From positions 642,233 through 706,232 of the forward strand of contig JBILBF010000001.1 of assembly GCA_044353855.1 (NCBI GenBank): a stretch of 64,000 nt of DNA, read 5' to 3'. Each line of letters starts with the position of its first letter. Within the stretch, counting starts at the first letter, position 1. Made by a program: the position numbers and the translations under genes. The notes beneath the pieces are model-generated. The model searched no databases, had not been told where the DNA came from, and saw only the letters and a program-made list of their open reading frames with translations. This stretch comes from Bacteroidia bacterium. Its GTDB lineage: Bacteria > Bacteroidota > Bacteroidia > UKL13-3. Of the stretch, positions 1 through 13,745 are shown one piece after another.

Positions 1-462
1 TCTACCAATCTTATCGAAAACCAAGCGTTTAAAAAATTCAGAATTGGTATTGCTGTAGCCGATTGGAATACAGAAATTACGCATGCACTGTTAAATGGTG
101 CTATCGATTTTTTAAAAGAAAAAGGAGTTAAGGACAAAAATATACATGTAAAATTTGTCCCTGGATCATTTGAATTACCTCTTGCAGCTTCTTGGTTGGC
201 CAAACGTAAAGATATAGATTCAGTCATTACTTTAGGGTGTGTAATACAAGGTGATACCCGCCATTTTGATTTTATATGCGATGCTTGTGCTCATGGAGTT
301 ATGCAAGTAGGATTGGAAACCAACAAGCCTATCGTATTTGGTGTACTTACAACTGATAACCAAAAACAAGCTCAAGAAAGAGCTGGAGGTAAACATGGTA
401 ACAAAGGAATAGAAGCAGCCGAAACGGCTTTAAAAATGTTATTGGTAAAAGAGCAGATTTAA
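1..462 (+). CDS. ribH: 6,7-dimethyl-8-ribityllumazine synthase (riboflavin synthase beta subunit), 5' partial at window edge
   Basis: Frame 1 translates from nt 1 without a stop (STNLIENQAFKKFRIGIAVADWNTEITHALLNGAIDFLKEKGV...VITLGCVIQGDTRHFDF...GNKGIEAAETALKML), which is recognisable lumazine synthase sequence; stop at 462. Confidence 0.9.
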   Translation, partial: STNLIENQAFKKFRIGIAVADWNTEITHALLNGAIDFLKEKGVKDKNIHVKFVPGSFELPLAASWLAKRKDIDSVITLGCVIQGDTRHFDFICDACAHGVMQVGLETNKPIVFGVLTTDNQKQAQERAGGKHGNKGIEAAETALKMLLVKEQI

Positions 463-513
463 CCAAAGGATTAATATTAAGTTAACCTTAGTTGGGTTAT
501 TATTGTAATCTGA

Positions 514-1995
514 TTGCTACGTATATTCATGCAAAAATTATTATTTTTATGTACTGTTTTATGGGTGTTGTTATACTCGTGTAAAAAGGAGTTTGATGGC
601 GAGCGCAATAACCAAAATGCACCCGAAACATTCACGTTGGTTGATTCTATTATAAGAGATTCAAACAATTTACTTTCAACCACAGTTAAAGCGAGTTGGT
701 GGGGTGTTTCCAAATCTGGTTTTATTTCAGGATACGAGGTATCAACTGACAACCAACTAACATGGCAATTTACCAAAGCACAAGATGGAACCTTTTTATT
801 AAACCTCCCTTTAGGATTTGCTAAAGGCAATTTACCTATTTTTGTTAGAGCTATTGATAATATTGGACAAACAGATCCAACTCCTGCCGTAATGGTTTTT
901 CCGGTAAAAAATACCGCCCCTACCATTGTGTTTGATTATTTAACAGGTCGTAAAACAATAACTTATCCAGCCTTTAGGTACTATTGGATAACGACTGATT
1001 TAGATGGGCCACAAGATATTGAAAGTATCGAAATAGTATTAAATGACACCAATAAAACACCATTGGTGATGCCCAGCAATACAATAGCAGCAAGTTTTGT
1101 CGCGCTAAATAACAATGGTGTTTTTGACACGTCATGTTGGGTGTACCAAAATACGCGTTCGGTTCCTTTTGCCGAAAAACTACATGGTATTCAATTCAAC
1201 AAGCTCAATTATATTTTTATCCGTTCGGTAGATAGGGTGGGAGCAAAATCTGCTTGGGTACGCGATTCAATTACCATAAAAAAACCTAAATCGGATTTGT
1301 TGTTGGTGAATGATTATAGTACCAAAGGACCTGTTCAAAAATTTTACACTACACAAGTATCTAACTTAGGACCTGCATACAGTAATTTTGACTCCTTATT
1401 GTTGCTTACCGATTTGCCTGCTGATGTTTTTACAATCATCAAAACATTGGACTTTTATAAACGGATTGTTTGGTATAGCGATAATCCTACAAGTACTTTA
1501 GGGTTGGCTCAGTTGGTTACGCAAAACTTTTTTTTACAAGGTGGTCGAATGTTGATGACTTGCGAAATTCCAAATGATTTTCCGTATAACTCCGATTTGC
1601 TCAATTTTACACCTGTGCAAGAATTAGCGCTGCCTCCATCGGGTACAATATTGCGAATGAATAAAGACGAAATAATGTATCCTTATACTCCCGCAAACGG
1701 TTGGCCTACTTTAAAAGCTGAAGCTATTCTATCGAGTGCACGTCCATTTATAACATTTAGTCAGCCTTCTGGTGCTTTTACTTACGATTCAACCTGCAAA
1801 GCAAACATTTTAGCACAAAATACTCAAGGTACAACAGCATGGACGGGTCCTTCAAATGTACTCAGCAAAAGAGTAAAAGTTAATACCGGAAAGCCTGATT
1901 TGTTGTTCTTAACCTTACCCTTACATCGGTTAAATGGGAACAATAATATGGATTCTTTTTTTAGGCAGGCACTTATAACAGAGTTAGCATTTTAA
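514..1995 (+). CDS. hypothetical secreted lipoprotein (493 aa)
   Basis: N-terminal signal peptide ending in lipobox-like LLYSCKK; no recognisable catalytic motifs; stop overlaps purN start (TAATG). Confidence 0.6.
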   Translation: MLRIFMQKLLFLCTVLWVLLYSCKKEFDGERNNQNAPETFTLVDSIIRDSNNLLSTTVKASWWGVSKSGFISGYEVSTDNQLTWQFTKAQDGTFLLNLPLGFAKGNLPIFVRAIDNIGQTDPTPAVMVFPVKNTAPTIVFDYLTGRKTITYPAFRYYWITTDLDGPQDIESIEIVLNDTNKTPLVMPSNTIAASFVALNNNGVFDTSCWVYQNTRSVPFAEKLHGIQFNKLNYIFIRSVDRVGAKSAWVRDSITIKKPKSDLLLVNDYSTKGPVQKFYTTQVSNLGPAYSNFDSLLLLTDLPADVFTIIKTLDFYKRIVWYSDNPTSTLGLAQLVTQNFFLQGGRMLMTCEIPNDFPYNSDLLNFTPVQELALPPSGTILRMNKDEIMYPYTPANGWPTLKAEAILSSARPFITFSQPSGAFTYDSTCKANILAQNTQGTTAWTGPSNVLSKRVKVNTGKPDLLFLTLPLHRLNGNNNMDSFFRQALITELAF

Positions 1996-2564
1996 TGAAA
2001 AAAATACTACTGTTTGCATCGGGAAGTGGGAGCAATGCAGATAATATTTGCCATTATTTTAACAATAATGCCAATGTAAAAGTGGTCGCTTTGTGTTGCA
2101 ATAATCCCCAAGCAGGTGTGATTGCTAAAATGGAAAAATGGCAAGTACCCGTTCTGTTAACTAGCCGAGCACAATTAAATGATGCCAGTTATTTTTTACC
2201 GCTTATTCAACAATACAAACCAGATATTATTGTACTTGCAGGTTTTTTAGTATTGGTACCTCCTTATTTGGTCAAAGAGTTTCCCAATCGTATTATCAAT
2301 ATTCATCCAGCATTACTACCAAAATATGGAGGAAAAGGTATGTATGGACATTTTGTGCACGAAGCCGTTCTTGCTCAAAACGAAACCGAACATGGCATTA
2401 CAATTCATTTGGTAAATGAAAAATTTGATGATGGTGCACACTTGTTTCAACAGTCATTTGAAGTTACACCTCTGGATAACTTGGAATCATTATCGATGAA
2501 AATTTCACTGCTCGAAATGACTCATTACCCAAAAGTGATAGATGAGTATTTGGAGCATAATTAA
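1995..2564 (+). CDS. purN: phosphoribosylglycinamide formyltransferase
   Basis: GAR transformylase signature region IINIHPALLPKYGGKGMYGHFVHEAV and N-terminal ILLFASGSGSN; ~190 aa as typical. Confidence 0.9.
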   Translation: MKKILLFASGSGSNADNICHYFNNNANVKVVALCCNNPQAGVIAKMEKWQVPVLLTSRAQLNDASYFLPLIQQYKPDIIVLAGFLVLVPPYLVKEFPNRIINIHPALLPKYGGKGMYGHFVHEAVLAQNETEHGITIHLVNEKFDDGAHLFQQSFEVTPLDNLESLSMKISLLEMTHYPKVIDEYLEHN

Positions 2565-3058
2565 GTAGACTTAATTTTTTTCTCGATAAGTGAGGTTGAA
2601 AAACCCGGAATAAAATCGATGGTTTGTACGCTGCCACCTTTTGCTGTTACAATATCATAACCCACAATATTCTCAGCAGTATAGTCGCTACCTTTTACCA
2701 AAATATCAGGTTGCACCATATTAATAAGTTCATAGGGTGTTTGTTCCTCAAATAATATTACTGCATCTACAAACTCAAAAGAAGCTAAAATTAGCATACG
2801 CGAAAACTCATCTTGTATCGGGCGATGTGGTCCTTTTAGTTCACTTACCGAGGCATCGGTATTAACGCCAATAATCAACCTGTCGCCTAGGTCGCGAGCT
2901 TTGGCTAAATAATCTACATGCCCACGGTGAATAAGGTCGAATACACCATTGGTAAATACTATTTTTTCACCACCGTCATTCCACTGTACAATTTTTTGCA
3001 TCAACATATCTGGAGTTGTACATATTTTATTTTGAATGAATTCGGTATGAGTTTGCAT
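2561..3058 (-). CDS. cytidylyltransferase-like nucleotidyltransferase (RfaE domain II / D-beta-D-heptose 1-phosphate adenylyltransferase-like)
   Basis: FTNGVFDLIHRGHVDYLAKARDLGDRLIIGVNTD matches the HxGH nucleotidyltransferase motif of the RfaE domain II / glycerol-3-P cytidylyltransferase family; 165 aa. Confidence 0.7.
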   Translation of the reverse strand: MQTHTEFIQNKICTTPDMLMQKIVQWNDGGEKIVFTNGVFDLIHRGHVDYLAKARDLGDRLIIGVNTDASVSELKGPHRPIQDEFSRMLILASFEFVDAVILFEEQTPYELINMVQPDILVKGSDYTAENIVGYDIVTAKGGSVQTIDFIPGFSTSLIEKKIKST

Positions 3059-3139
3059 ATATATCAGATATTATAATGTGCAAAATACGGATAAGTTTTT
3101 AAGATAATGAAGGATACCATTTAGAAGGGAATAATTAAT

Positions 3140-3466
3140 ATCGAATTTCGAAATAAAAGAGGAAATATGAATGAAAAAGAAAGACTAAATAAGAGAATGA
3201 AGATTATTGGATTGAAGAAATAATTAATTTCGAAATTCGAGATTAAATATTCATAACCCCCAAAGAAAATATTTTCTATTGAATGATCAGATTTAGAAAA
3301 GGGATTGTTTTCTAAATTTTAAAAATTAAATATTATTTCGAAATTCGAGATTAAATATTCATAACCCCAAAAGAAAATATTTTCTATTGAATTATCAGAC
3401 TTAGAAAAAGGGATTTTATTCTAAGTTTAAAAATTAAATATTCGAATTCGACATTCGAATTTTGAG
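3140..3466. repeat. AT-rich intergenic tandem repeat: two full 108-bp units (3227-3334, 3335-3442) plus partial flanking copies, rich in TTCGAAATTCGA / CGAATTCG palindromic cores
   Basis: Direct reading: atttcgaaattcgagattaaatattcataacccc(c)aaagaaaatattttctattgaat... repeats with period 108; each unit holds a 8-10 bp hairpin (3291-3317 and 3399-3426). Confidence 0.85.
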
Positions 3467-3469
3467 TAT

Positions 3470-4456
3470 CTATTTTTTCTGTTGTTGAGCTAACACCAAT
3501 AACGAACAAACGCCACCAATAGCTAAGAGTAAAATCATTTGTACACCATGCACAATGGTTGCGTATGCAATGCCATCTGCTTGCGCTACACCAAATAACA
3601 ATAAGGATTGCATCACAGCAAAATGGTAAGTTCCTGCACCTGCTCCTGGAGCCGGAATAATCATACCTATAGAGCCAATTACAAATACGGTTAGGCAATC
3701 CATAAAACTAAGGTGTGCAGTTGCTTGCATGGCAAATAAGCAGAAATACATCATCAATACATAACAAATCCAAATACCAATAGATAATAATAAAAATAAT
3801 AATGGATTGTTGATTTTACGGATACTCAAAAGGCCCTCGGCAAAGCCTTTACATACAACTACTATTTTTTGAAGTAAGGGATGAGCAATAATTTTTTTAC
3901 GCATTATCAATAGCAATGTTCCGAGTAGTAAAAAAAATCCTATTACTACATATTTCAGGGTGTGATCAGCCGAAGAGGGATTACTATTAATTATATTATT
4001 CAGAACAAAATTACGAAGCAATTCAAACTGTATCAAAAAAACCACAAATAATAATAGTAGTAAAATAACAACATCAAATACACGTTCGGTAACAACGGTG
4101 CCCAGTGATTTATTAACAGGTATATCATTTGTTTTAAGCAAAGAAGCGCAGCGAGAAACTTCACCCGCTCTGGGTATAATATAGTTCATCATGTACCCAA
4201 TCATTACTGCATAAAAGCTGTTTTTTGCCGAAACGGTGTACCCCAAAGCTTTGTATAACATATTAGCCCTATATGCTCGTATATAATGGCTAATAACAGA
4301 AACCGACATGCCGGCTGCAATCCACCAATAATTGGTATGCTTAAATTTGAGCATCAAATCAGCCCAATCGGTTCCTTTAAAAACAATATATAAAAACAGA
4401 ACACCAATCAGTCCAATTATTGTGTATTGAATAACCGATTTTAGCTTTGCGCTCAA
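3470..4456 (-). CDS. integral membrane protein, lysylphosphatidylglycerol-synthase-TM-like / flippase-like (UPF0104) family
   Basis: 328 aa with ~8 predicted TM helices; N-terminal region resembles LPG_synthase_TM family proteins; 4-bp overlap with panD suggests an operon. Confidence 0.55.
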
Positions 4457-4803
4457 AAGTTTAGTTTGTTGTTTTGGTCAGGATAAATGGCAATTGGTTG
4501 GTGTTTTTTGGCCACCTCAAATTCCATTGAACAGTAGGAAATGATAATTAAATGATCACCAACAAATCCTTTGCGGGCAGCTGGACCATTGAGACAAATA
4601 ACGCCTGAGTTGCGTTCTCCTTTGATAATGTATGTTTCCAAGCGCTCTCCGTTATTCACGTTTACCACTTGTACTTTTTCATTTTCAATCATATTTGCAG
4701 CTTCCATTAATGCTTCATCAATGGTAATACTGCCCACATAATGAAGCTCCGTTTGGGTAAGCTTTACTCTGTGTATTTTGGATTTTAAAACTTCTATATT
4801 CAT
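4453..4803 (-). CDS. panD: aspartate 1-decarboxylase
   Basis: [90 protein letters not shown] is canonical PanD including the GS self-cleavage site; start set at the internal ATG (4803) rather than the ORF-track start 4863. Confidence 0.9.
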
Positions 4804-4897
4804 AAAAAGCGAGGCAAATGTATGGCAAAATTTTAGAATCACCCGATTTGTAAAGGCAAACATGCTAAAAATCCAGTAAAACTACCATATTGCATCT

Positions 4898-5875
4898 ATG
4901 AAATTAATACTTGCGCTTGAACCTCAATTGGCTAACAAAAAGATAACCTATAACGACACGTTATTATTACTAGGTTCTTGTTTTTCCGATAATATGGGTG
5001 CTTTGTTACATGATGCCAAGTTTAATGTTTTGTTTAATCCTACTGGAATTGTATTTGATCCATTAAGTATAGCTCAACATTTAAGCGATTATGTAACGGG
5101 TAAACAATATCAACCTAATGATCTTTTTCAGCACAATGAGTTGTGGCATAGTTGGCTTCATCATTCGCAGTTCTCTGCTCCTTCGCAAACACAAACTTTT
5201 ACAGCTATTAATGAGTCTATTTGTATTAGCCAACAACACCTGCAATCAGCATCGCATCTTTTTATTACCTTAGGGACAGCTTTTTCGTATTCTTTAAAAA
5301 GTGATGATAAAGCAGTGGCCAATTGTCATAAAGCACCCAAAGAATGGTTTGCAAAAAGATTGTTATCTATCGATGAAATGGTTCAGGTTTTAAAACAAAG
5401 TATTGATCAAGTAAAAAACGTAAATCCACCAATAGAAGTTGTTTTTACTGTAAGTCCTGTTAAGCATTTGCGCGATGGTATTATAGAAAATGTACACAGC
5501 AAAGCAAGGTTATTGGAAGTGGTGCATCAACTTCAAGCGCAACAATATTGCACTTATTTTCCTGCATATGAGCTAGTAACAGAAGTGTTACGTGATTACC
5601 GTTTTTATAAAAGTGATATGGCTCACCCAAATGAACAATCGATACAAATTGTATTCGACCATCTTTGTGAAACGTTTTTAACTGCTGAGTCAGCAAAACT
5701 AGTAGAAAGTGTAATGCATATTATAATGGCTAAAAAGCATAAACCAATACATGTTGATTCAACTACACATCAACAATTTTTACGTTTATTTTTGGATAAA
5801 ACAATGGGTATGCAACAACAATTGCCACAGTTAAATTGGGAACAAGAAATAAATTATTTTAGTAACAGGATATAA
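4898..5875 (+). CDS. GSCFA family protein
   Basis: N-terminal LLLGSCFSDNMG motif and overall length typical of the GSCFA domain family. Confidence 0.7.
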   Translation: MKLILALEPQLANKKITYNDTLLLLGSCFSDNMGALLHDAKFNVLFNPTGIVFDPLSIAQHLSDYVTGKQYQPNDLFQHNELWHSWLHHSQFSAPSQTQTFTAINESICISQQHLQSASHLFITLGTAFSYSLKSDDKAVANCHKAPKEWFAKRLLSIDEMVQVLKQSIDQVKNVNPPIEVVFTVSPVKHLRDGIIENVHSKARLLEVVHQLQAQQYCTYFPAYELVTEVLRDYRFYKSDMAHPNEQSIQIVFDHLCETFLTAESAKLVESVMHIIMAKKHKPIHVDSTTHQQFLRLFLDKTMGMQQQLPQLNWEQEINYFSNRI

Positions 5876-11034: not shown

Positions 11035-11195
11035 AAAGTCGTTGTCTTCGACTCCGCTCAGACAACATCAGAATTTGTAAATCCCTCATTGAATAAAATT
11101 CAGTGGGGGATTTTGGGTTTAAATGAATCTTGTATGATAAAATTCTATGAATAATATTAGGCGTTTCACTAGTAGAAAACTTATTGAGCTTTGGA

Positions 11196-11290
11196 GAATG
11201 TAGTAAAAGTGCATAAACGCAAAAAGCCATTCGGTCCCGATAGCTATCGGGAGGCGTTTTCTTTTTTTGCTCCCTTCATTGATAAAAGAT
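11196..11290. repeat. degenerate remnant of the GIY-YIG/tRNA-Asn junction (first ~8 codons of a GIY-YIG gene + hairpin interrupted by the 18-bp palindrome + tRNA 3'-end-like TTTGCTCCC)
   Basis: gtaaaagtgcataaacgcaaaaagccattcgg at 11203-11234 matches 13452-13483 (start of the intact GIY-YIG gene and its upstream hairpin); palindrome TCCCGATAGCTATCGGGA at 11235-11252; tttgctccc at 11269-11277. Confidence 0.6.
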
Positions 11291-11380
11291 GCAGCCAAAA
11301 TGAGTTAATGATGTATGGAATTATTAGGAAATTAGAAGTTTGATTTTTTATTGACTTAATCAGATTCAAGAAGAAGTTGG

Positions 11381-11644
11381 TTATAGCTTATGTTTACTTT
11401 TCTTTTCCTGCATCTTAATAAACATTTCAAACTCAATTATCAAGTCGCTCAACTTAAATTCAAATGCATCTGCAAGATTTTTAACCCAATAAAGTGTAGG
11501 TGTAATTAAACCACGTTCAAGTCGAGATATATTTTGAAAATTATTGCTCATTAAATCGGCTAAATCAGATTGGGACATGCCTTTTTTAGACCTTTTATAT
11601 CTAACAAAATCACCGAACAAAATGTTGTAGCCTCTTTTTTCCAT
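11381..11644 (-). CDS. XRE-family helix-turn-helix transcriptional regulator (87 aa)
   Basis: KKGMSQSDLADLMSNNFQNISRLERGLITPTLYWVKNLADAF is a classic Cro/C1-type HTH. Confidence 0.7.
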   Translation of the reverse strand: MEKRGYNILFGDFVRYKRSKKGMSQSDLADLMSNNFQNISRLERGLITPTLYWVKNLADAFEFKLSDLIIEFEMFIKMQEKKSKHKL

Positions 11645-11754
11645 TTAAGCCAAACAATTTGTGATAATAGACAACTTGTATACTAACCATATGTGGTTAT
11701 TTTTGTGATGAACATTACATTGATGTTCATCAACCAATTTAAAATAGTATTAAA

Positions 11755-12822
11755 ATGAAAAAAGTAATTTACATAACAATTGCAATTCTAGGATTTGCAA
11801 ATTTTACAATGGCACAAGTGCCAAGCTATGTGCCATCAGATAGTTTAAAAGGATGGTGGGGATTTAATGGTAATGCGAATGACCAAAGCGGTAATGGAAA
11901 TAATGGAACCGTGAATGGTGCTACATTAACAAGTGATAGGTTTGGAAATTCTAATAATTCTTATGGATTCAACGGTTCAAATAATTTTATTTCTTATAAT
12001 AACATTGCAAACCTCCCTATTAAGAACTCTTCGCGAACAATTTCATTATGGTTTCTTTTAACTCCTACTTCAGGATATAACGATGGATATTCACTAATTT
12101 CTTATGGAAGTAAGAATGTTAATGGTGGGTTGAATGATATTTTTATAAAAGCAGATCCTGCTTTGATCGAATTTAATGCACATAGTTGTTATACCGATAA
12201 TAATCCTGGAACAATTAATTCATTTTCAAGCACTTGGCATCATCTAATAGTAAAATACGATAGTGTTAGCATTGATAGTATAGATATTCGTTTTGATAAT
12301 TTAAAAATTGCATCAACTAATCATAACATAAATCAATTAAAAAGACTATTTACCGATAGTTCAGAAATGTTAATTGGTAAATCTGTAATTTCATATGCTA
12401 CTGAATTTTATTTTAATGGTAAAATTGACGACATCGGTATTTGGAATCGTGCTTTAACTGAACAAGAAATCACAAATCTATATAATGGTAATATTTGTTT
12501 TCAGAATATTAGCGTAACTGATACATTAGTTATAAATGTTAACCGTACTGGTTATAATCCTGTAACTTATAGTAACACTTTAAAGGTGTATCCAAACCCT
12601 ACAAAAGACCGCATCACTATTGATAATGGTGACATATCAAAAATGTCAGGATATTCAATAAAAATATTCAATTCATTAGGTCAACAAAAATTCCAATCAG
12701 CCATTAACCAACAACAATTTACAATTGATATTACACAATGGGGTGGCAATGGTTTATACTTCTTAAATTTACTTGATGCATCAGGAAATATTATTGATGT
12801 AAGAAAGATTTTATTGAATTAA
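11755..12822 (+). CDS. secreted LamG/concanavalin-A-like lectin domain protein with T9SS (Por) C-terminal sorting domain
   Basis: Signal peptide; LamG-like core (WHHLIVKYD...GKIDDIGIWNRALTEQEI); C-terminal KVYPNPTKDRITID...GLYFLNLLDASGNIIDVRKILLN is a T9SS CTD. Confidence 0.75.
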   Translation: MKKVIYITIAILGFANFTMAQVPSYVPSDSLKGWWGFNGNANDQSGNGNNGTVNGATLTSDRFGNSNNSYGFNGSNNFISYNNIANLPIKNSSRTISLWFLLTPTSGYNDGYSLISYGSKNVNGGLNDIFIKADPALIEFNAHSCYTDNNPGTINSFSSTWHHLIVKYDSVSIDSIDIRFDNLKIASTNHNINQLKRLFTDSSEMLIGKSVISYATEFYFNGKIDDIGIWNRALTEQEITNLYNGNICFQNISVTDTLVINVNRTGYNPVTYSNTLKVYPNPTKDRITIDNGDISKMSGYSIKIFNSLGQQKFQSAINQQQFTIDITQWGGNGLYFLNLLDASGNIIDVRKILLN

Positions 12823-12875
12823 TAAGCGTCTAATTTTTAATCATTAAATCAAAATAAACTAGCATTTTATTTGAA

Positions 12876-12906
12876 AAAGGAGAGTCAAATGGCTCTCCTT
12901 TTTTTG
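12876..12906 (+). terminator. rho-independent terminator of the LamG/T9SS gene
   Basis: aggagag tcaaatgg ctctcct stem-loop followed by TTTTTTT. Confidence 0.7.
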
Positions 12907-12993
12907 TTAATGTTAAAATATGCAACCACTTCTGGGGCTTGCTGTAAAAAGAAAAAGGTGACAGAAACGTTGCCTTGTTTAGTTGTGCTCCCT

Positions 12994-13011
12994 TCCCGAT
13001 AGAAATCGGGA
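12994..13011. repeat. imperfect copy of the 18-bp palindrome (TCCCGATAGAAATCGGGA)
   Basis: Differs from the perfect palindrome at 2 central positions; lies in the repeat-rich stretch preceded by GTGCTCCC. Confidence 0.6.
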
Positions 13012-13097
13012 CTGGGCTCCCCGATTGTGCAGCTCTATGCTCGTTCCTCACACAGCCGCAGCATCGGGATAAACTTCTCGCCCTCAAAATTTATTCA

Positions 13098-13130
13098 AAA
13101 AAAAAGACCGCAGACTGCGGCCTTTTTTTA
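13098..13130. terminator. bidirectional hairpin terminator (A-run / GACCGCAGACTGCGGCC / T-run); on the minus strand it directly follows the pseudo-tRNA-Asn 3' end
   Basis: aaaaaaaaagaccgcagactgcggccttttttt; position is consistent with being the original terminator of the split ancestral tRNA-Asn. Confidence 0.6.
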
Positions 13131-13135
13131 ATTTG

Positions 13136-13187
13136 CTCCCTGACCTGCCCCGATAGCTATCGGGGGAACCAGGGACCTATTGATTAA
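13136..13187 (-). pseudogene. tRNA-Asn pseudo-fragment: 3' half (anticodon loop to 3' end) with the 18-bp palindrome replacing the T-loop
   Basis: aatttgctccctgacctg + ccccgatagctatcgggg + aaccagggacct + attgattaa aligns with the intact tRNA-Asn at 13502-13548 except for the palindrome insertion and 1 mismatch. Confidence 0.75.
13148..13165. repeat. 18-bp perfect palindrome CCCCGATAGCTATCGGGG (variant of TCCCGATAGCTATCGGGA)
   Basis: Self-complementary; replaces the T-loop of the 3' pseudo-half. Confidence 0.8.
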
Positions 13188-13467
13188 GAGTTATAATTTT
13201 GTGAACCAGTTCAGGATACTGAATCAATGATTCAATAAACCGTTTACTCTTCATTCGTTTAATATGCATTTCAACTTTCAAGGCATGACTTCTATTTTCG
13301 CAAGGGATAATAAGCACTATTTCCCATGGAATTCCTGCTTTTGTCGAATTTGTGTTGAGTTCAGAACTGTTGTGGTACAAAAGACGTGCGTCAACATCCG
13401 TTGTTTCACCAGTATAATATCGATTGCGTTTAGTAGAATATAAAATATAGCAAAAGTGCATAAACAA
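13177..13467 (-). CDS. GIY-YIG nuclease family protein (COG2827/UPF0213-like, 96 aa)
   Basis: FCYILYS...RYYTGETTDVDARLLYHN...IPWEIVLIIPCE matches the GIY / YIG / Arg / Glu core of small GIY-YIG (URI) proteins; last three codons and the stop are encoded by the tRNA-derived fragment; start is immediately 3' of a hairpin+T-run. Confidence 0.8.
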   Translation of the reverse strand: MFMHFCYILYSTKRNRYYTGETTDVDARLLYHNSSELNTNSTKAGIPWEIVLIIPCENRSHALKVEMHIKRMKSKRFIESLIQYPELVHKIITLNQ

Positions 13468-13507
13468 AAAAAGCCATTCGGACAGAATGGCTTTTGCATT
13501 TAATTTG

Positions 13508-13581
13508 CTCCCTGACCTGGACTCGAACCAGGGACCTAGTGATTAACAGTCACTCGCTCTAACCAGCTGAGCTATCAAGGA
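13508..13581 (-). tRNA. tRNA-Asn (anticodon GUU), intact
   Basis: Reverse complement TCCTTGATAGCTCAGCTGGTTAGAGCGAGTGACTGTTAATCACTAGGTCCCTGGTTCGAGTCCAGGTCAGGGAG: 7-bp acceptor stem, D-arm, anticodon stem AGTGA/TCACT with loop CTGTTAA, T-arm CTGGTTCGAGTCCAG; 74 nt. Confidence 0.9.
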
Positions 13582-13612
13582 ATATTTTCCGATTTCAAGT
13601 TGTCAAAGCTTG

Positions 13613-13663
13613 TTGTTACTTGCTCTAACCTCCCGATAGCTATCGGGAGAGCTATCAAGGAAT
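13613..13663 (-). pseudogene. tRNA-Asn pseudo-fragment: 5' half (positions ~1-32) with the 18-bp palindrome replacing the D-loop; retains the native 5' flank
   Basis: gttacttgctctaacc + tcccgatagctatcggga + gagctatcaaggaat(tttcc) aligns with the intact tRNA 5' half at 13548-13590, including the upstream flank ttttcc. Confidence 0.75.
13631..13648. repeat. 18-bp perfect palindrome TCCCGATAGCTATCGGGA
   Basis: Self-complementary; identical to the copy at 11235-11252. Confidence 0.8.
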
Positions 13664-13745
13664 TTTCCTTTAAGGGGATGCAATGATAGGATTTGAAATT
13701 TAAATACGCAATATTTGCCACGAAAAAATTTAAAATAAAATTAGC

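Follow-up and report, generated by a model that had tools for sequence, protein, structure and literature searches.

In REPtrons, a short palindromic repeat, the repetitive extragenic palindromic (REP) sequence, is paired with one cognate enzyme gene, that of the REP-associated tyrosine transposase (RAYT), which is flanked by its own repeats. Most repeat copies lie dispersed far from this gene in extragenic DNA, and the repeat variant co-varies with the enzyme lineage. REP superfamilies are defined by a GTAG or CGTC tag, and their members are imperfect palindromes of 20–40 bp with high copy number (PMC3733652). We analyzed a stretch of 64,000 nucleotides from a Bacteroidia bacterium (contig JBILBF010000001.1, positions 642,233 to 706,232; hereafter the window), in which an 18-bp palindrome accompanies a tRNA-Asn gene and a small gene for a GIY-YIG nuclease. 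This pair shares with REPtrons the enzyme gene flanked by its repeats, the dispersal of most copies and the co-variation of repeat variant and enzyme lineage. It differs in the enzyme, which is of the Slx1/UPF0213 GIY-YIG type and not an HUH Y1 (IS200-like) transposase, and in the repeat, which is a perfect 16–18-mer with sharp ends, lacks a GTAG or CGTC head and apparently has a low copy number per genome. Moreover, the hairpin replaces three to five nucleotides in loops of displaced tRNA halves, and the same sequence is found phylum-wide. With HUH transposase and GTAG tag both absent, the IS200/REP-like machinery that an earlier reading from the letters alone (the sequence-only reading) had considered was not borne out.

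Free-standing GIY-YIG homing endonuclease genes, i.e., T4 Seg and relatives of I-TevI, among them insertions by which part of the host gene is duplicated, resemble the locus in another respect, since a small nuclease gene lies in or beside a conserved gene and a restored copy stands side by side with a displaced fragment. However, endonucleases of the I-TevI/Seg type comprise about 200–250 residues with a catalytic and a sequence-specific DNA-binding domain, whereas the protein described here has 94 residues and the catalytic domain only. Immunity by site disruption, as in homing, is not applicable, because the restored tRNA is identical to the naive target. We know of no cognate-hairpin component in homing endonuclease systems. 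For phage SegB, action at a tRNA gene region with segmental amplification as the result was recently reported (PMC13096335), and the tandem arrays at the related locus L264 (see below) resemble that outcome.

Islands inserted at tRNA genes by integrases (attL/attR) are alike in the insertion near the anticodon arm, the restored tRNA, the displaced partial copy and the accumulation of serial displaced copies. Here, in contrast, no integrase is present, the cassette is only about 0.4 kb long, 5′ as well as 3′ halves are displaced and loops are rewritten with a specific hairpin. Miniature inverted-repeat transposable elements (MITEs) and insertion sequences have terminal inverted repeats and duplicate their target site; at this locus there is no duplication and 3–5 nucleotides are lost, and the one longer form with such ends is a split-arm form of about 50 nucleotides in the window and in locus L266. 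Rickettsia palindromic elements, yeast mitochondrial GC clusters and the double-hairpin elements of fungal mitochondrial DNA are likewise short and self-complementary, occur in structured RNA genes, in intergenic DNA and near endonuclease open reading frames (ORFs), and insert into each other. They exceed the present hairpin in length, are confined to particular lineages and for the most part are not known to have a cognate enzyme, and they insert instead of replacing 3–5 nucleotides.

We conclude that the palindrome is the signature hairpin of a Bacteroidota-wide cassette, in which an Slx1-like GIY-YIG gene sits in a tRNA gene and loop bases of the displaced tRNA pieces are swapped for the hairpin. 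The sequence-only reading did not recognize a described element, and the element appears not to have been described: the literature that we searched for the sequence and for GIY-YIG together with tRNA, Bacteroidetes, palindrome or UPF0213, which did not cover all journals, held no account of cassette or palindrome.

Palindrome copies in a split tRNA-Asn gene

We searched the window for the 18-mer TCCCGATAGCTATCGGGA with up to three mismatches and found exactly four sites of this sequence or near variants, all within 2.4 kb (11235–13648). Shuffled sequences gave an expectation of 0.02 such sites, and none of 100 shuffles reached four, which upholds the count of the sequence-only reading. All four copies were located by pattern search:

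11235–11252: palindrome copy, perfect TCCCGATAGCTATCGGGA
12994–13011: palindrome copy, imperfect TCCCGATAGAAATCGGGA
13148–13165, no strand assigned: palindrome copy CCCCGATAGCTATCGGGG, the CCCC/GGGG variant, at the T-loop position
13631–13648, no strand assigned: palindrome copy, perfect TCCCGATAGCTATCGGGA, at the D-loop position

A hairpin-like 16-mer at position 2846 lies inside a 165-residue ORF and was taken as chance.

Structures around the copies were read from the sequence and with ARAGORN and Rfam; tRNA pseudo-halves were compared with the intact tRNA and mapped by flank matching. On the minus strand, the cassette runs from a 5′ pseudo-half over a 33-nucleotide spacer, the intact tRNA, a terminator-like hairpin, the 94-residue ORF and a 3′ pseudo-half to a second terminator-like hairpin:

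13661..13615, minus strand: 5′ pseudo-half of tRNA-Asn (tRNA positions 1 to ~33), TCCTTGATAGCTC-palindrome-GGTTAGAGCAAGTAAC, with the palindrome in place of the D-loop AGCT (comparison with the intact tRNA, flank matching)
13582..13614, minus strand: spacer between 5′ pseudo-half and intact tRNA, its 3′ part AAATCGGAAAATA matching the native tRNA leader of relatives (comparison with relatives)
13507..13581, minus strand: intact tRNA-Asn(GTT), palindrome-free (ARAGORN; Rfam RF00005, 67.5 bits)
13469..13496, minus strand: terminator-like hairpin separating tRNA and GIY-YIG start codon, AAAGCCATTCTGTCCGAATGGCTTT with a T-run after it (sequence)
13177..13461, minus strand: gene of a 94-residue stand-alone GIY-YIG nuclease of the Slx1/UPF0213 type (Pfam PF01541, PDB matches, AlphaFold 2 (AF2)/Foldseek)
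13134..13191, minus strand: 3′ pseudo-half of tRNA-Asn (anticodon arm to 3′ end), ACTCTTAATCAATAGGTCCCTGGTTC-palindrome-CAGGTCAGGGAGCA, with the palindrome preceded by AGGTCCCTGGTTC and in place of the T-loop GAGTC (sequence, repeat families, flank matching)
13099..13129, minus strand: intrinsic-terminator-like hairpin closing the cassette, 15-nucleotide arms, 93% complementary, A/T runs beside it (inverted-repeat search)

The tRNA halves are thus separated by spacer, intact tRNA and ORF, and the intact tRNA (13581..13507) lacks the palindrome, in line with the sequence-only reading. That reading had also placed every copy at a loop, which we can confirm for the D-loop, the T-loop and the hairpin at 11235. 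Copy 12994, however, lies between GAGCCCAG and AGGGAGCA of an additional tRNA-Asn 3′-end fragment, i.e., at the junction of T arm and acceptor, where there is no clean loop. At 11235 the palindrome stands in place of a hairpin's loop and some of its 3′ arm. The hairpin concerned shares 82% identity with the one between tRNA and nuclease gene (13469–13496), and only this copy of the palindrome is followed by a T-run. It had been described as preceding a GIY-YIG start; the loop replacement stands, but what follows is a truncated remnant with similarity to about 18 nucleotides of the ORF and not an intact gene.

The final codons and the stop codon of the ORF fall in the anticodon arm of the 3′ pseudo-half, and in all relatives the ORF ends inside tRNA-like sequence. 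The structure of the 5′ pseudo-half recurs in the orthologous loci L130, L133, L135, L264 and L267, the CCCC/GGGG variant CCCCGATAGCTATCGGGG occupies the identical place in L130, L134, L135 and L264, and an equivalent of the 13469..13496 hairpin was found in all orthologous loci. A permissive Rfam search of 10.5–14.5 kb for a group I intron ribozyme core returned the tRNA only. No tyrosine or serine integrase is encoded in the cassette, which has the 94-residue ORF only, and no Y1 transposase was among the ORFs scanned with Pfam at 11.3–14.7 kb (GIY-YIG, helix-turn-helix (HTH), LamG/type IX secretion system (T9SS) and PfkB genes).

The two cassette copies of the palindrome are mutually complementary, and for 13095–13670 (minus strand) the predicted minimum free energy (MFE) fold pairs the 5′ with the 3′ pseudo-half through acceptor strands and palindromes in a long-range stem of ~26 bp. 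In the window ORFs 11119–11298 and 13575–13721 and at the C-terminus of P0009, the palindrome is translated as PIAIG(T/R), i.e., it produces spurious C-terminal extensions in gene calls and ORF lists.

A minimal GIY-YIG protein of the Slx1/UPF0213 type

Stand-alone bacterial Slx1/UPF0213 GIY-YIG proteins are widespread, and to our knowledge no function has been established for them. Pfam found the catalytic domain alone in the 94-residue protein (PF01541, E 2.3e-11), and NCBIfam has no model for it. In phmmer searches against the PDB, the matches were 1zg2 (E 2.4e-5), 1ywl (8e-3) and SLX1 (0.04), and among solved structures, the stand-alone UPF0213 proteins BH0048 and EF2693 are closest in sequence, with Slx1 next. 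The AF2 model (predicted local distance difference test score of 90) has two short C-terminal helices; with this model Foldseek ranked 1zg2, 4xlg, 7cq3 and 6seh at the top (UPF0213, Slx1/Slx1-Slx4; E 3e-3 to 6e-2), compared with 0.5 for UvrC and 1.4 for I-TevI. By sequence and predicted fold, the nuclease is hence nearer to UPF0213/Slx1 than to UvrC or I-TevI. Bacterial stand-alone Slx1-like proteins represent a minimal form of the GIY-YIG domain that lacks auxiliary domains (PMC1564403).

Residues Y5, Y15, Y16, G18, R26, H30, N31 and E64 are invariant in the alignments, and orthologues have dN/dS ratios of 0.04–0.07 at dS >1. The invariant catalytic residues together with these ratios mark the gene as functional. 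The subfamily comprises about 2200 clusters at 50% identity (E up to 1e-3), and many members have N-terminal extensions of 25–40 residues whose start probably lies in the tRNA or hairpin upstream. We found no plasmid relatives, and phage records gave only weak Listeria-phage matches.

Hairpins replace loop nucleotides in displaced tRNA parts

To place the window in context, we collected 80 diverse metagenome loci with relatives of the 94-residue protein (38–51% identity). An intact same-strand tRNA lies within 300 bp of the GIY-YIG gene in 59 of the 80 loci, 50 times upstream and nine times downstream; the nearest tRNA is mostly Asn or Phe, followed by Leu, Met and Arg, with single cases of Val, Thr and Gly. 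A strict hairpin pattern, NN-CCGA-(4 or 6 nt)-TCGG-N′N′, is present within 200 bp of the gene in 66 of 80 loci, at 1.63 per kb near the gene versus 0.10 per kb farther away. With a relaxed pattern and a limit of 260 bp, 75 of 80 loci (94%) carry a hairpin; of the five loci without one, two have hardly any downstream sequence. The tie to the neighboring GIY-YIG gene, proposed from the window alone, therefore holds across the family.

These hairpins are located inside displaced tRNA parts. In 64 cases, many of them related by descent, but with several tRNA species and all four loops represented, both flanks could be placed on the neighboring intact tRNA. In all 64, the hairpin replaces nucleotides, namely 5 (37 cases), 3 (16), 4 (10) or 11 (one case), and no clean insertion or target duplication was found among them. 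The replaced nucleotides belong to the T-loop (27), the variable loop (15), the D-loop (15), the anticodon loop (four) or other positions (three). Terminators behave in the same way: related cassettes have terminator loops that are either filled with a hairpin (L248, L223) or empty (L253, L256), again with about 5 nucleotides replaced.

A second palindromic family (CCTGTCTGCCGACAGGCAGG / CCTGCCTGCCGGTAGGCAGG; CCTGYCTGCCGRCAGGCAGG-like) was observed in loops of displaced tRNA halves beside GIY-YIG genes (L047 7760–7779, L225 ~695–715) as well as in L044 and L099 (flanks); in L225 a nested 18-mer accompanies it.

Hairpin types match nuclease clades

The hairpin family has the consensus NN-CCGA-(T)-N4-(A)-TCGG-N′N′, is GC-rich and 16 or 18 nucleotides long, and varies in the four central bases. 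We counted covariation on 65 unique gene-adjacent copies, for which outer pairing had not been required. The first and second pair outside CCGA/TCGG are complementary in 61/65 and 63/65 copies, with three and two pair types, respectively; the third pair outward is at chance level (13/65).

Two hairpin types exist, an 18-mer with a CCGATNNNNATCGG core and a 16-mer with a CCGANNNNTCGG core. When nuclease proteins were clustered by sequence into clades 1–5, the window protein fell into the group of clades 3–5. Clades 1–2 are accompanied by 41 16-mers and no 18-mer, clades 3–5 by 61 18-mers and no 16-mer. This also applies where a clade occupies a tRNA other than its usual one. A clade-3 gene at tRNA-Phe (L200) has the 18-mer type in a Phe-derived T-arm, and a clade-1 gene at tRNA-Arg (L254) has the 16-mer type in an Arg-derived fragment. 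Hairpin type hence follows nuclease clade and not tRNA species. Since the flanks are tRNA-specific and the hairpin is nuclease-clade-specific, we infer that the hairpin is installed anew in each newly occupied tRNA.

Hairpins are maintained while copy number changes

Relatives keep the order of PfkB gene, tRNA-Asn, GIY-YIG gene and, farther on, ribonucleotide reductase gene. Compared across the window, L130 and L135, only ~50–60% of third codon positions and 62–78% of spacer positions are identical. Despite these saturated synonymous sites, both palindromes are identical at 18 of 18 positions, and the tRNA-like flanks are nearly invariant. The spacer at 13582..13614, unlike the palindrome, diverges fast (25–28 of 36 positions identical among relatives). 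Moreover, the copies in D-loop (TCCC type) and T-loop (CCCC type) remain distinct in all lineages. Flanks could be preserved by gene conversion from the intact tRNA, but palindromes cannot. Because they are conserved under saturating divergence, the hairpins behave as maintained cassette parts and not as decay products.

Strong conservation and stem covariation agree as well with another explanation, in which tRNA halves with a hairpin have a function as RNA or DNA, acting in stability or processing of the nuclease mRNA through a long T-arm or D-arm hairpin or a panhandle formed by the two copies, as tRNA-like decoys or in binding of a regulatory protein, so that the hairpin is immobile and dispersed copies are by-products. 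The ORF end inside tRNA-like sequence in all relatives, the predicted long-range stem that joins the two copies and the acceptor strands, and the terminator-like hairpin between tRNA and ORF, by which the ORF may depend on read-through, would all suit such a role. Yet the hairpin position varies among cassettes (T-loop, variable, anticodon or D-loop), many cassettes have one half only, and identical hairpins without orientation bias stand at more than 100 unrelated intergenic sites. Nested copies and filled versus empty terminator loops furthermore look like insertion events. We therefore regard purely functional, immobile parts as improbable.

Among relatives, 5′ units occur once, twice or 11 times and GIY-YIG units once, twice or at least seven times: L133 has two 5′ units versus one in L130, L134 has two serial 3′ halves with one palindrome half-deleted, and L267 has two 5′ units and two GIY-YIG units. 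The most extended arrays were found in L264 (CP012155.1, Bacteroidetes bacterium UKL13-3, complete genome; locus 1–4000). Eleven tandem units of 80 bp, each made of 5′ half, palindrome and spacer, precede the intact tRNA-Asn; beyond it, at least seven near-identical tandem 410-bp units follow, each with hairpin, complete GIY-YIG gene and 3′ half with palindrome, and this array extends past the end of the DNA fetched. Divergence is greater in distal units (up to ~10 changes, mainly in the spacer), but all palindromes are perfect. In L265, where the GIY-YIG gene is frameshifted, there are no palindromes and no pseudo-halves. The presence/absence polymorphism between strains that had been suggested as a check did not appear in the source population: the nine contigs fetched, of 17 with an identical protein, all hold the same palindrome copies.

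Dispersed copies throughout Bacteroidota

We scanned a species-representative genome collection for the exact 16-nucleotide core, with counts that are lower bounds. The core occurs in at least 120 genome stretches; among the 120 listed, 118 are from named Bacteroidota of five or more orders, one is unclassified and one is a contig in a metagenome-assembled genome (MAG) labelled Variovorax. The latter, L117 (CALRRY020000044.1), carries a typical tRNA-Met/GIY-YIG/palindrome cassette filed under a Variovorax paradoxus MAG and is probably a mis-binned Bacteroidota contig. The 18-mer was also found in 46 stretches of viral or proviral contigs. The core is flanked by a T..A pair in 106 of 134 copies, which makes the 18-mer the unit; outside it, flanks of dispersed copies are unrelated. 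Symmetric double variants (substitutions) are present among these copies. The base just after the 18-mer (L010–L129, L138–L183) is A in only 5% of flanks, symmetrically with T before it, where ~30% is expected; this deficit may reflect a target preference or the definition of the unit ends.

Such recurrence bears on the suggestion of the sequence-only reading that the palindrome is a cleavage or repair footprint, here taken as an untemplated scar of nuclease cuts or the product of local fold-back synthesis at each site. A break-repair product could account for 3–5 replaced nucleotides without clean insertion and for perfectly symmetric arms. However, the same 14-nucleotide inner sequence is found at hundreds of unrelated sites and genomes, the palindrome is unrelated to its local flanks, and no tRNA with a matching acceptor was found. 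In this form, the scar is refuted by one sequence recurring in more than 100 genomes, and we see hardly any room for this explanation; a surviving templated or cut-and-paste version merges with the cassette model given below. We also dropped a derivation of the palindrome from a tRNA 5′ end, whose acceptor strand, U8, A9 and D stem the half-site TCCCGATAGCT resembles, since an acceptor of this kind is missing from all 70 distinct tRNAs of the DNA fetched.

Dispersed copies are mostly intergenic. Their distribution over convergent, divergent and tandem gene pairs (16:15:55) showed no bias against the background (91:86:437), and solo copies had no positional bias of the terminator or operator type, i.e., toward gene ends or promoters. 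Half-sites alone were not above chance, and longer elements that end in these sequences do not form a family; a full-length transposon with palindromes as its ends was therefore discarded. Oligo-repeat flanks of low complexity, a candidate companion of solo copies in L107 and L120, did not exceed their frequency in the remaining intergenic DNA of the loci examined (p = 0.73). Degenerate oligo-repeats (e.g., TACGAAT or ACAACT units) make up intergenic DNA in many Bacteroidota (L107 5280–5530, L120 1340–1560 and 6100–6230, L058 5700–5800) and are a general trait of this DNA, not specific for the palindrome.

Some dispersed copies lie in terminator loops or nested inside other copies, including sites far from any cassette. 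Perfect flanking stems of at least 6 bp surround 7.6% of dispersed copies versus 0.6% of intergenic controls (p ~1e-7; >10-fold). An MFE-based test of loop preference gave a modest effect versus random positions that was gone versus intergenic controls (p = 0.29), and hence only the stricter perfect-flanking-stem test was significant. The hairpin-loop-targeting element of the sequence-only reading is thus retained in part, with terminator-loop and nested copies and enriched stems in its favor, whereas 3–5 nucleotides are replaced with no simple insertion and most dispersed copies stand outside hairpin loops.

In the stretches fetched around dispersed copies (up to ~15 kb each), a family hidden Markov model found a gene of this GIY-YIG family in three of the 120 listed genome stretches (L066, L117, L047) and in none of the 46 viral ones. 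In these three, too, the palindrome is located next to the gene within a displaced tRNA half. The random intergenic contexts lacking GIY-YIG neighbors that the sequence-only reading had set against its own interpretation are hence found in part, although the more than tenfold stem enrichment remains. In the viral-classified contigs L141 (~4800–4900) and L161 (~3350–3430), the palindrome stands in the D-loop position, with a flank (~45 nt) that continues through a CAT anticodon arm into the T arm of a tRNA-Met-like gene; no GIY-YIG gene lies within the stretch fetched.

The gene-free majority of 117 genome stretches and 46 viral stretches is what an independent micro-element would leave behind, which is moved in trans by another enzyme and accumulates in displaced tRNA halves because these are dispensable stem-loops, while cassettes with interrupted repeats survive deletion. 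Mostly intergenic solo copies without gene-orientation bias, nested and terminator-loop copies far from any cassette, and the second, unrelated palindrome family in displaced halves (L047, L225) likewise suit this explanation. It is at odds with several other findings. Hairpin type tracks the nuclease clade with no exception in 102 hairpins, including those at a 'wrong' tRNA; hairpins occur in 94% of cassettes although solo copies are rare per genome among the matches listed; and conservation at 18/18 positions under saturated divergence is not required for mere interruption of a repeat. Furthermore, hairpins are gone where the nuclease is dead (L265), no candidate transposase was seen, and half-sites are never found alone above chance. 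We therefore consider an independent micro-element unlikely, if less so than immobile functional parts.

A probable selfish nuclease cassette with a cognate hairpin

Taken together, we think it probable that the palindrome is the cognate hairpin of small, probably selfish tRNA-gene cassettes of Bacteroidota, with the nuclease in a split tRNA gene and displaced parts whose loop is replaced by the hairpin. Such a cassette encodes one stand-alone Slx1/UPF0213 GIY-YIG nuclease of 90–100 residues in a tRNA gene split near the anticodon arm. It brings along a replacement part, by which an intact tRNA persists while the displaced 5′ or 3′ part stays alongside. In the displaced part, a hairpin of 16 or 18 nucleotides takes the place of 3–5 nucleotides in a D-, T-, variable or anticodon loop, and the 18-mer is the version of the nuclease clade in the window.

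How the nuclease acts, and how the hairpin is written, we infer from these patterns. Because Slx1-type enzymes are structure-specific, the nuclease most likely acts on stem-loop or cruciform DNA at tRNA genes, as its relative Slx1 does on structured DNA. The hairpin may be its recognition site, or may make the displaced half refractory, and could thus mark or neutralize the halves; a tetraloop on a 6–7-bp stem in place of the 7-nucleotide loop would remove the single-stranded loop. It would also interrupt a direct repeat of ~40 bp that could otherwise delete the gene. Occasionally, the same activity might write the hairpin into other stem-loops (terminators, palindromes) and elsewhere, and so give rise to dispersed solo copies that relate to the nuclease as REPs do to RAYT. 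Tandem arrays may stem from unequal recombination stimulated by breaks.

Several observations weigh against this cassette model. The intact cassette tRNA keeps normal loops, and a simple immunity from loop cutting fails to explain why it is spared. There is no evident template or transfer route for the hairpin. The correlation of clade and hairpin type could stem from shared host lineages rather than recognition, as cassette lineages are not independent samples, and ordinary unequal recombination can produce tandem arrays without a nuclease. A clean empty/filled pair for the whole cassette was not recovered; the nearest candidates are decayed (L265) or of a different type (L266). In addition, 117 of the 120 listed genome stretches and 46 of 46 viral ones lack a family gene within the stretch fetched, about 85–90% of dispersed copies lie outside obvious stems or hairpin loops, and there are apparently few copies per genome, i.e., one matching 8-kb stretch each in several multi-megabase contigs among the matches listed.

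A more far-reaching form of the model is a new mobile pair, in which a structure-specific GIY-YIG enzyme would cut a few loop nucleotides from DNA stem-loops that are then replaced by the cognate hairpin, a 'loop-rewriting' analogue of REP/RAYT for invading, marking and amplifying around tRNA genes. We regard this form as tentative, with odds of about one in four. In a bolder version still, hairpin-bearing tRNA halves could conceivably guide the nuclease to the tRNA gene that they match, serving as DNA or RNA handles for recognition. Overall, we see a selfish nuclease gene with a cognate palindromic repeat and a real chance of a mechanism that is new in kind. If the nuclease does rewrite loops, this would be a new mechanism of sequence mobility, carried out by a very small enzyme with both structure and sequence specificity.

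The cassette accounts for a phylum-wide 18-bp palindrome, for recurrent pseudo-tRNA fragments and tandem arrays at Bacteroidota tRNA genes and for spurious 'PIAIG' extensions. It also supplies a testable genomic context for UPF0213/Slx1 proteins, i.e., tRNA genes, displaced tRNA halves and a clade-specific hairpin.

Older cassette remnants and the adjacent interval

Beyond the main cassette, the window contains traces of further cassette material:

12986..13019, minus strand: older tRNA-Asn 3′-end fragment, GAGCCCAG-palindrome variant 12994–13011-AGGGAGCA (sequence)
13018..13082, minus strand: palindrome arms (TCCCCGAT ... ATCGGGA) around a 37-nucleotide insert, adjoining the conserved 16-mer GGCGAGAAGTTTATCC (sequence; homologous structure in L266)
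11197..11275, minus strand: remnant of a further cassette junction, i.e., the tRNA 3′ end AGGGAGCA (11275..11268), a hairpin with the palindrome for its loop (11235–11252) and the first ~18 nucleotides of a GIY-YIG ORF (ATG 11214..11212) (82% identity to 13444–13492)

The terminal AGGGAGCA of the tRNA is thus repeated twice outside the main cassette, at 12993..12986 beside the imperfect palindrome and at 11275..11268. The displaced copies of the tRNA 3′ end in the window number three, which fits repeated displacement events.

The 16-mer GGCGAGAAGTTTATCC was also found in L066 and L184. A longer, split-arm form, with arms CCCGAT...ATCGGG around an insert of 36–37 nucleotides, occurs at 13018–13082 of the window, at ~225–300 of L266 (reverse strand of 1–4000), at 4211–4272 of L066 and at 625–640 of L184. 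It always has GGCGAGAAGTTTATCC before it and a tRNA-Asn T-arm/acceptor fragment after it; the inserts of window and L266 are ~65–70% alike as judged by eye without alignment. The split-arm form and the hairpin may be related, with the former the older or 'full-length' one.

The DNA between cassette and ribonucleotide reductase gene (window 11276–12985; L130 5407–6159; L135 5527–7767) contains different genes in each relative. In the window, this interval consists of an XRE-type HTH gene (11381–11644) and a gene for a LamG/T9SS-tail protein (11755–12822), with cassette remnants on both sides, and it looks like a variable island at the tRNA.

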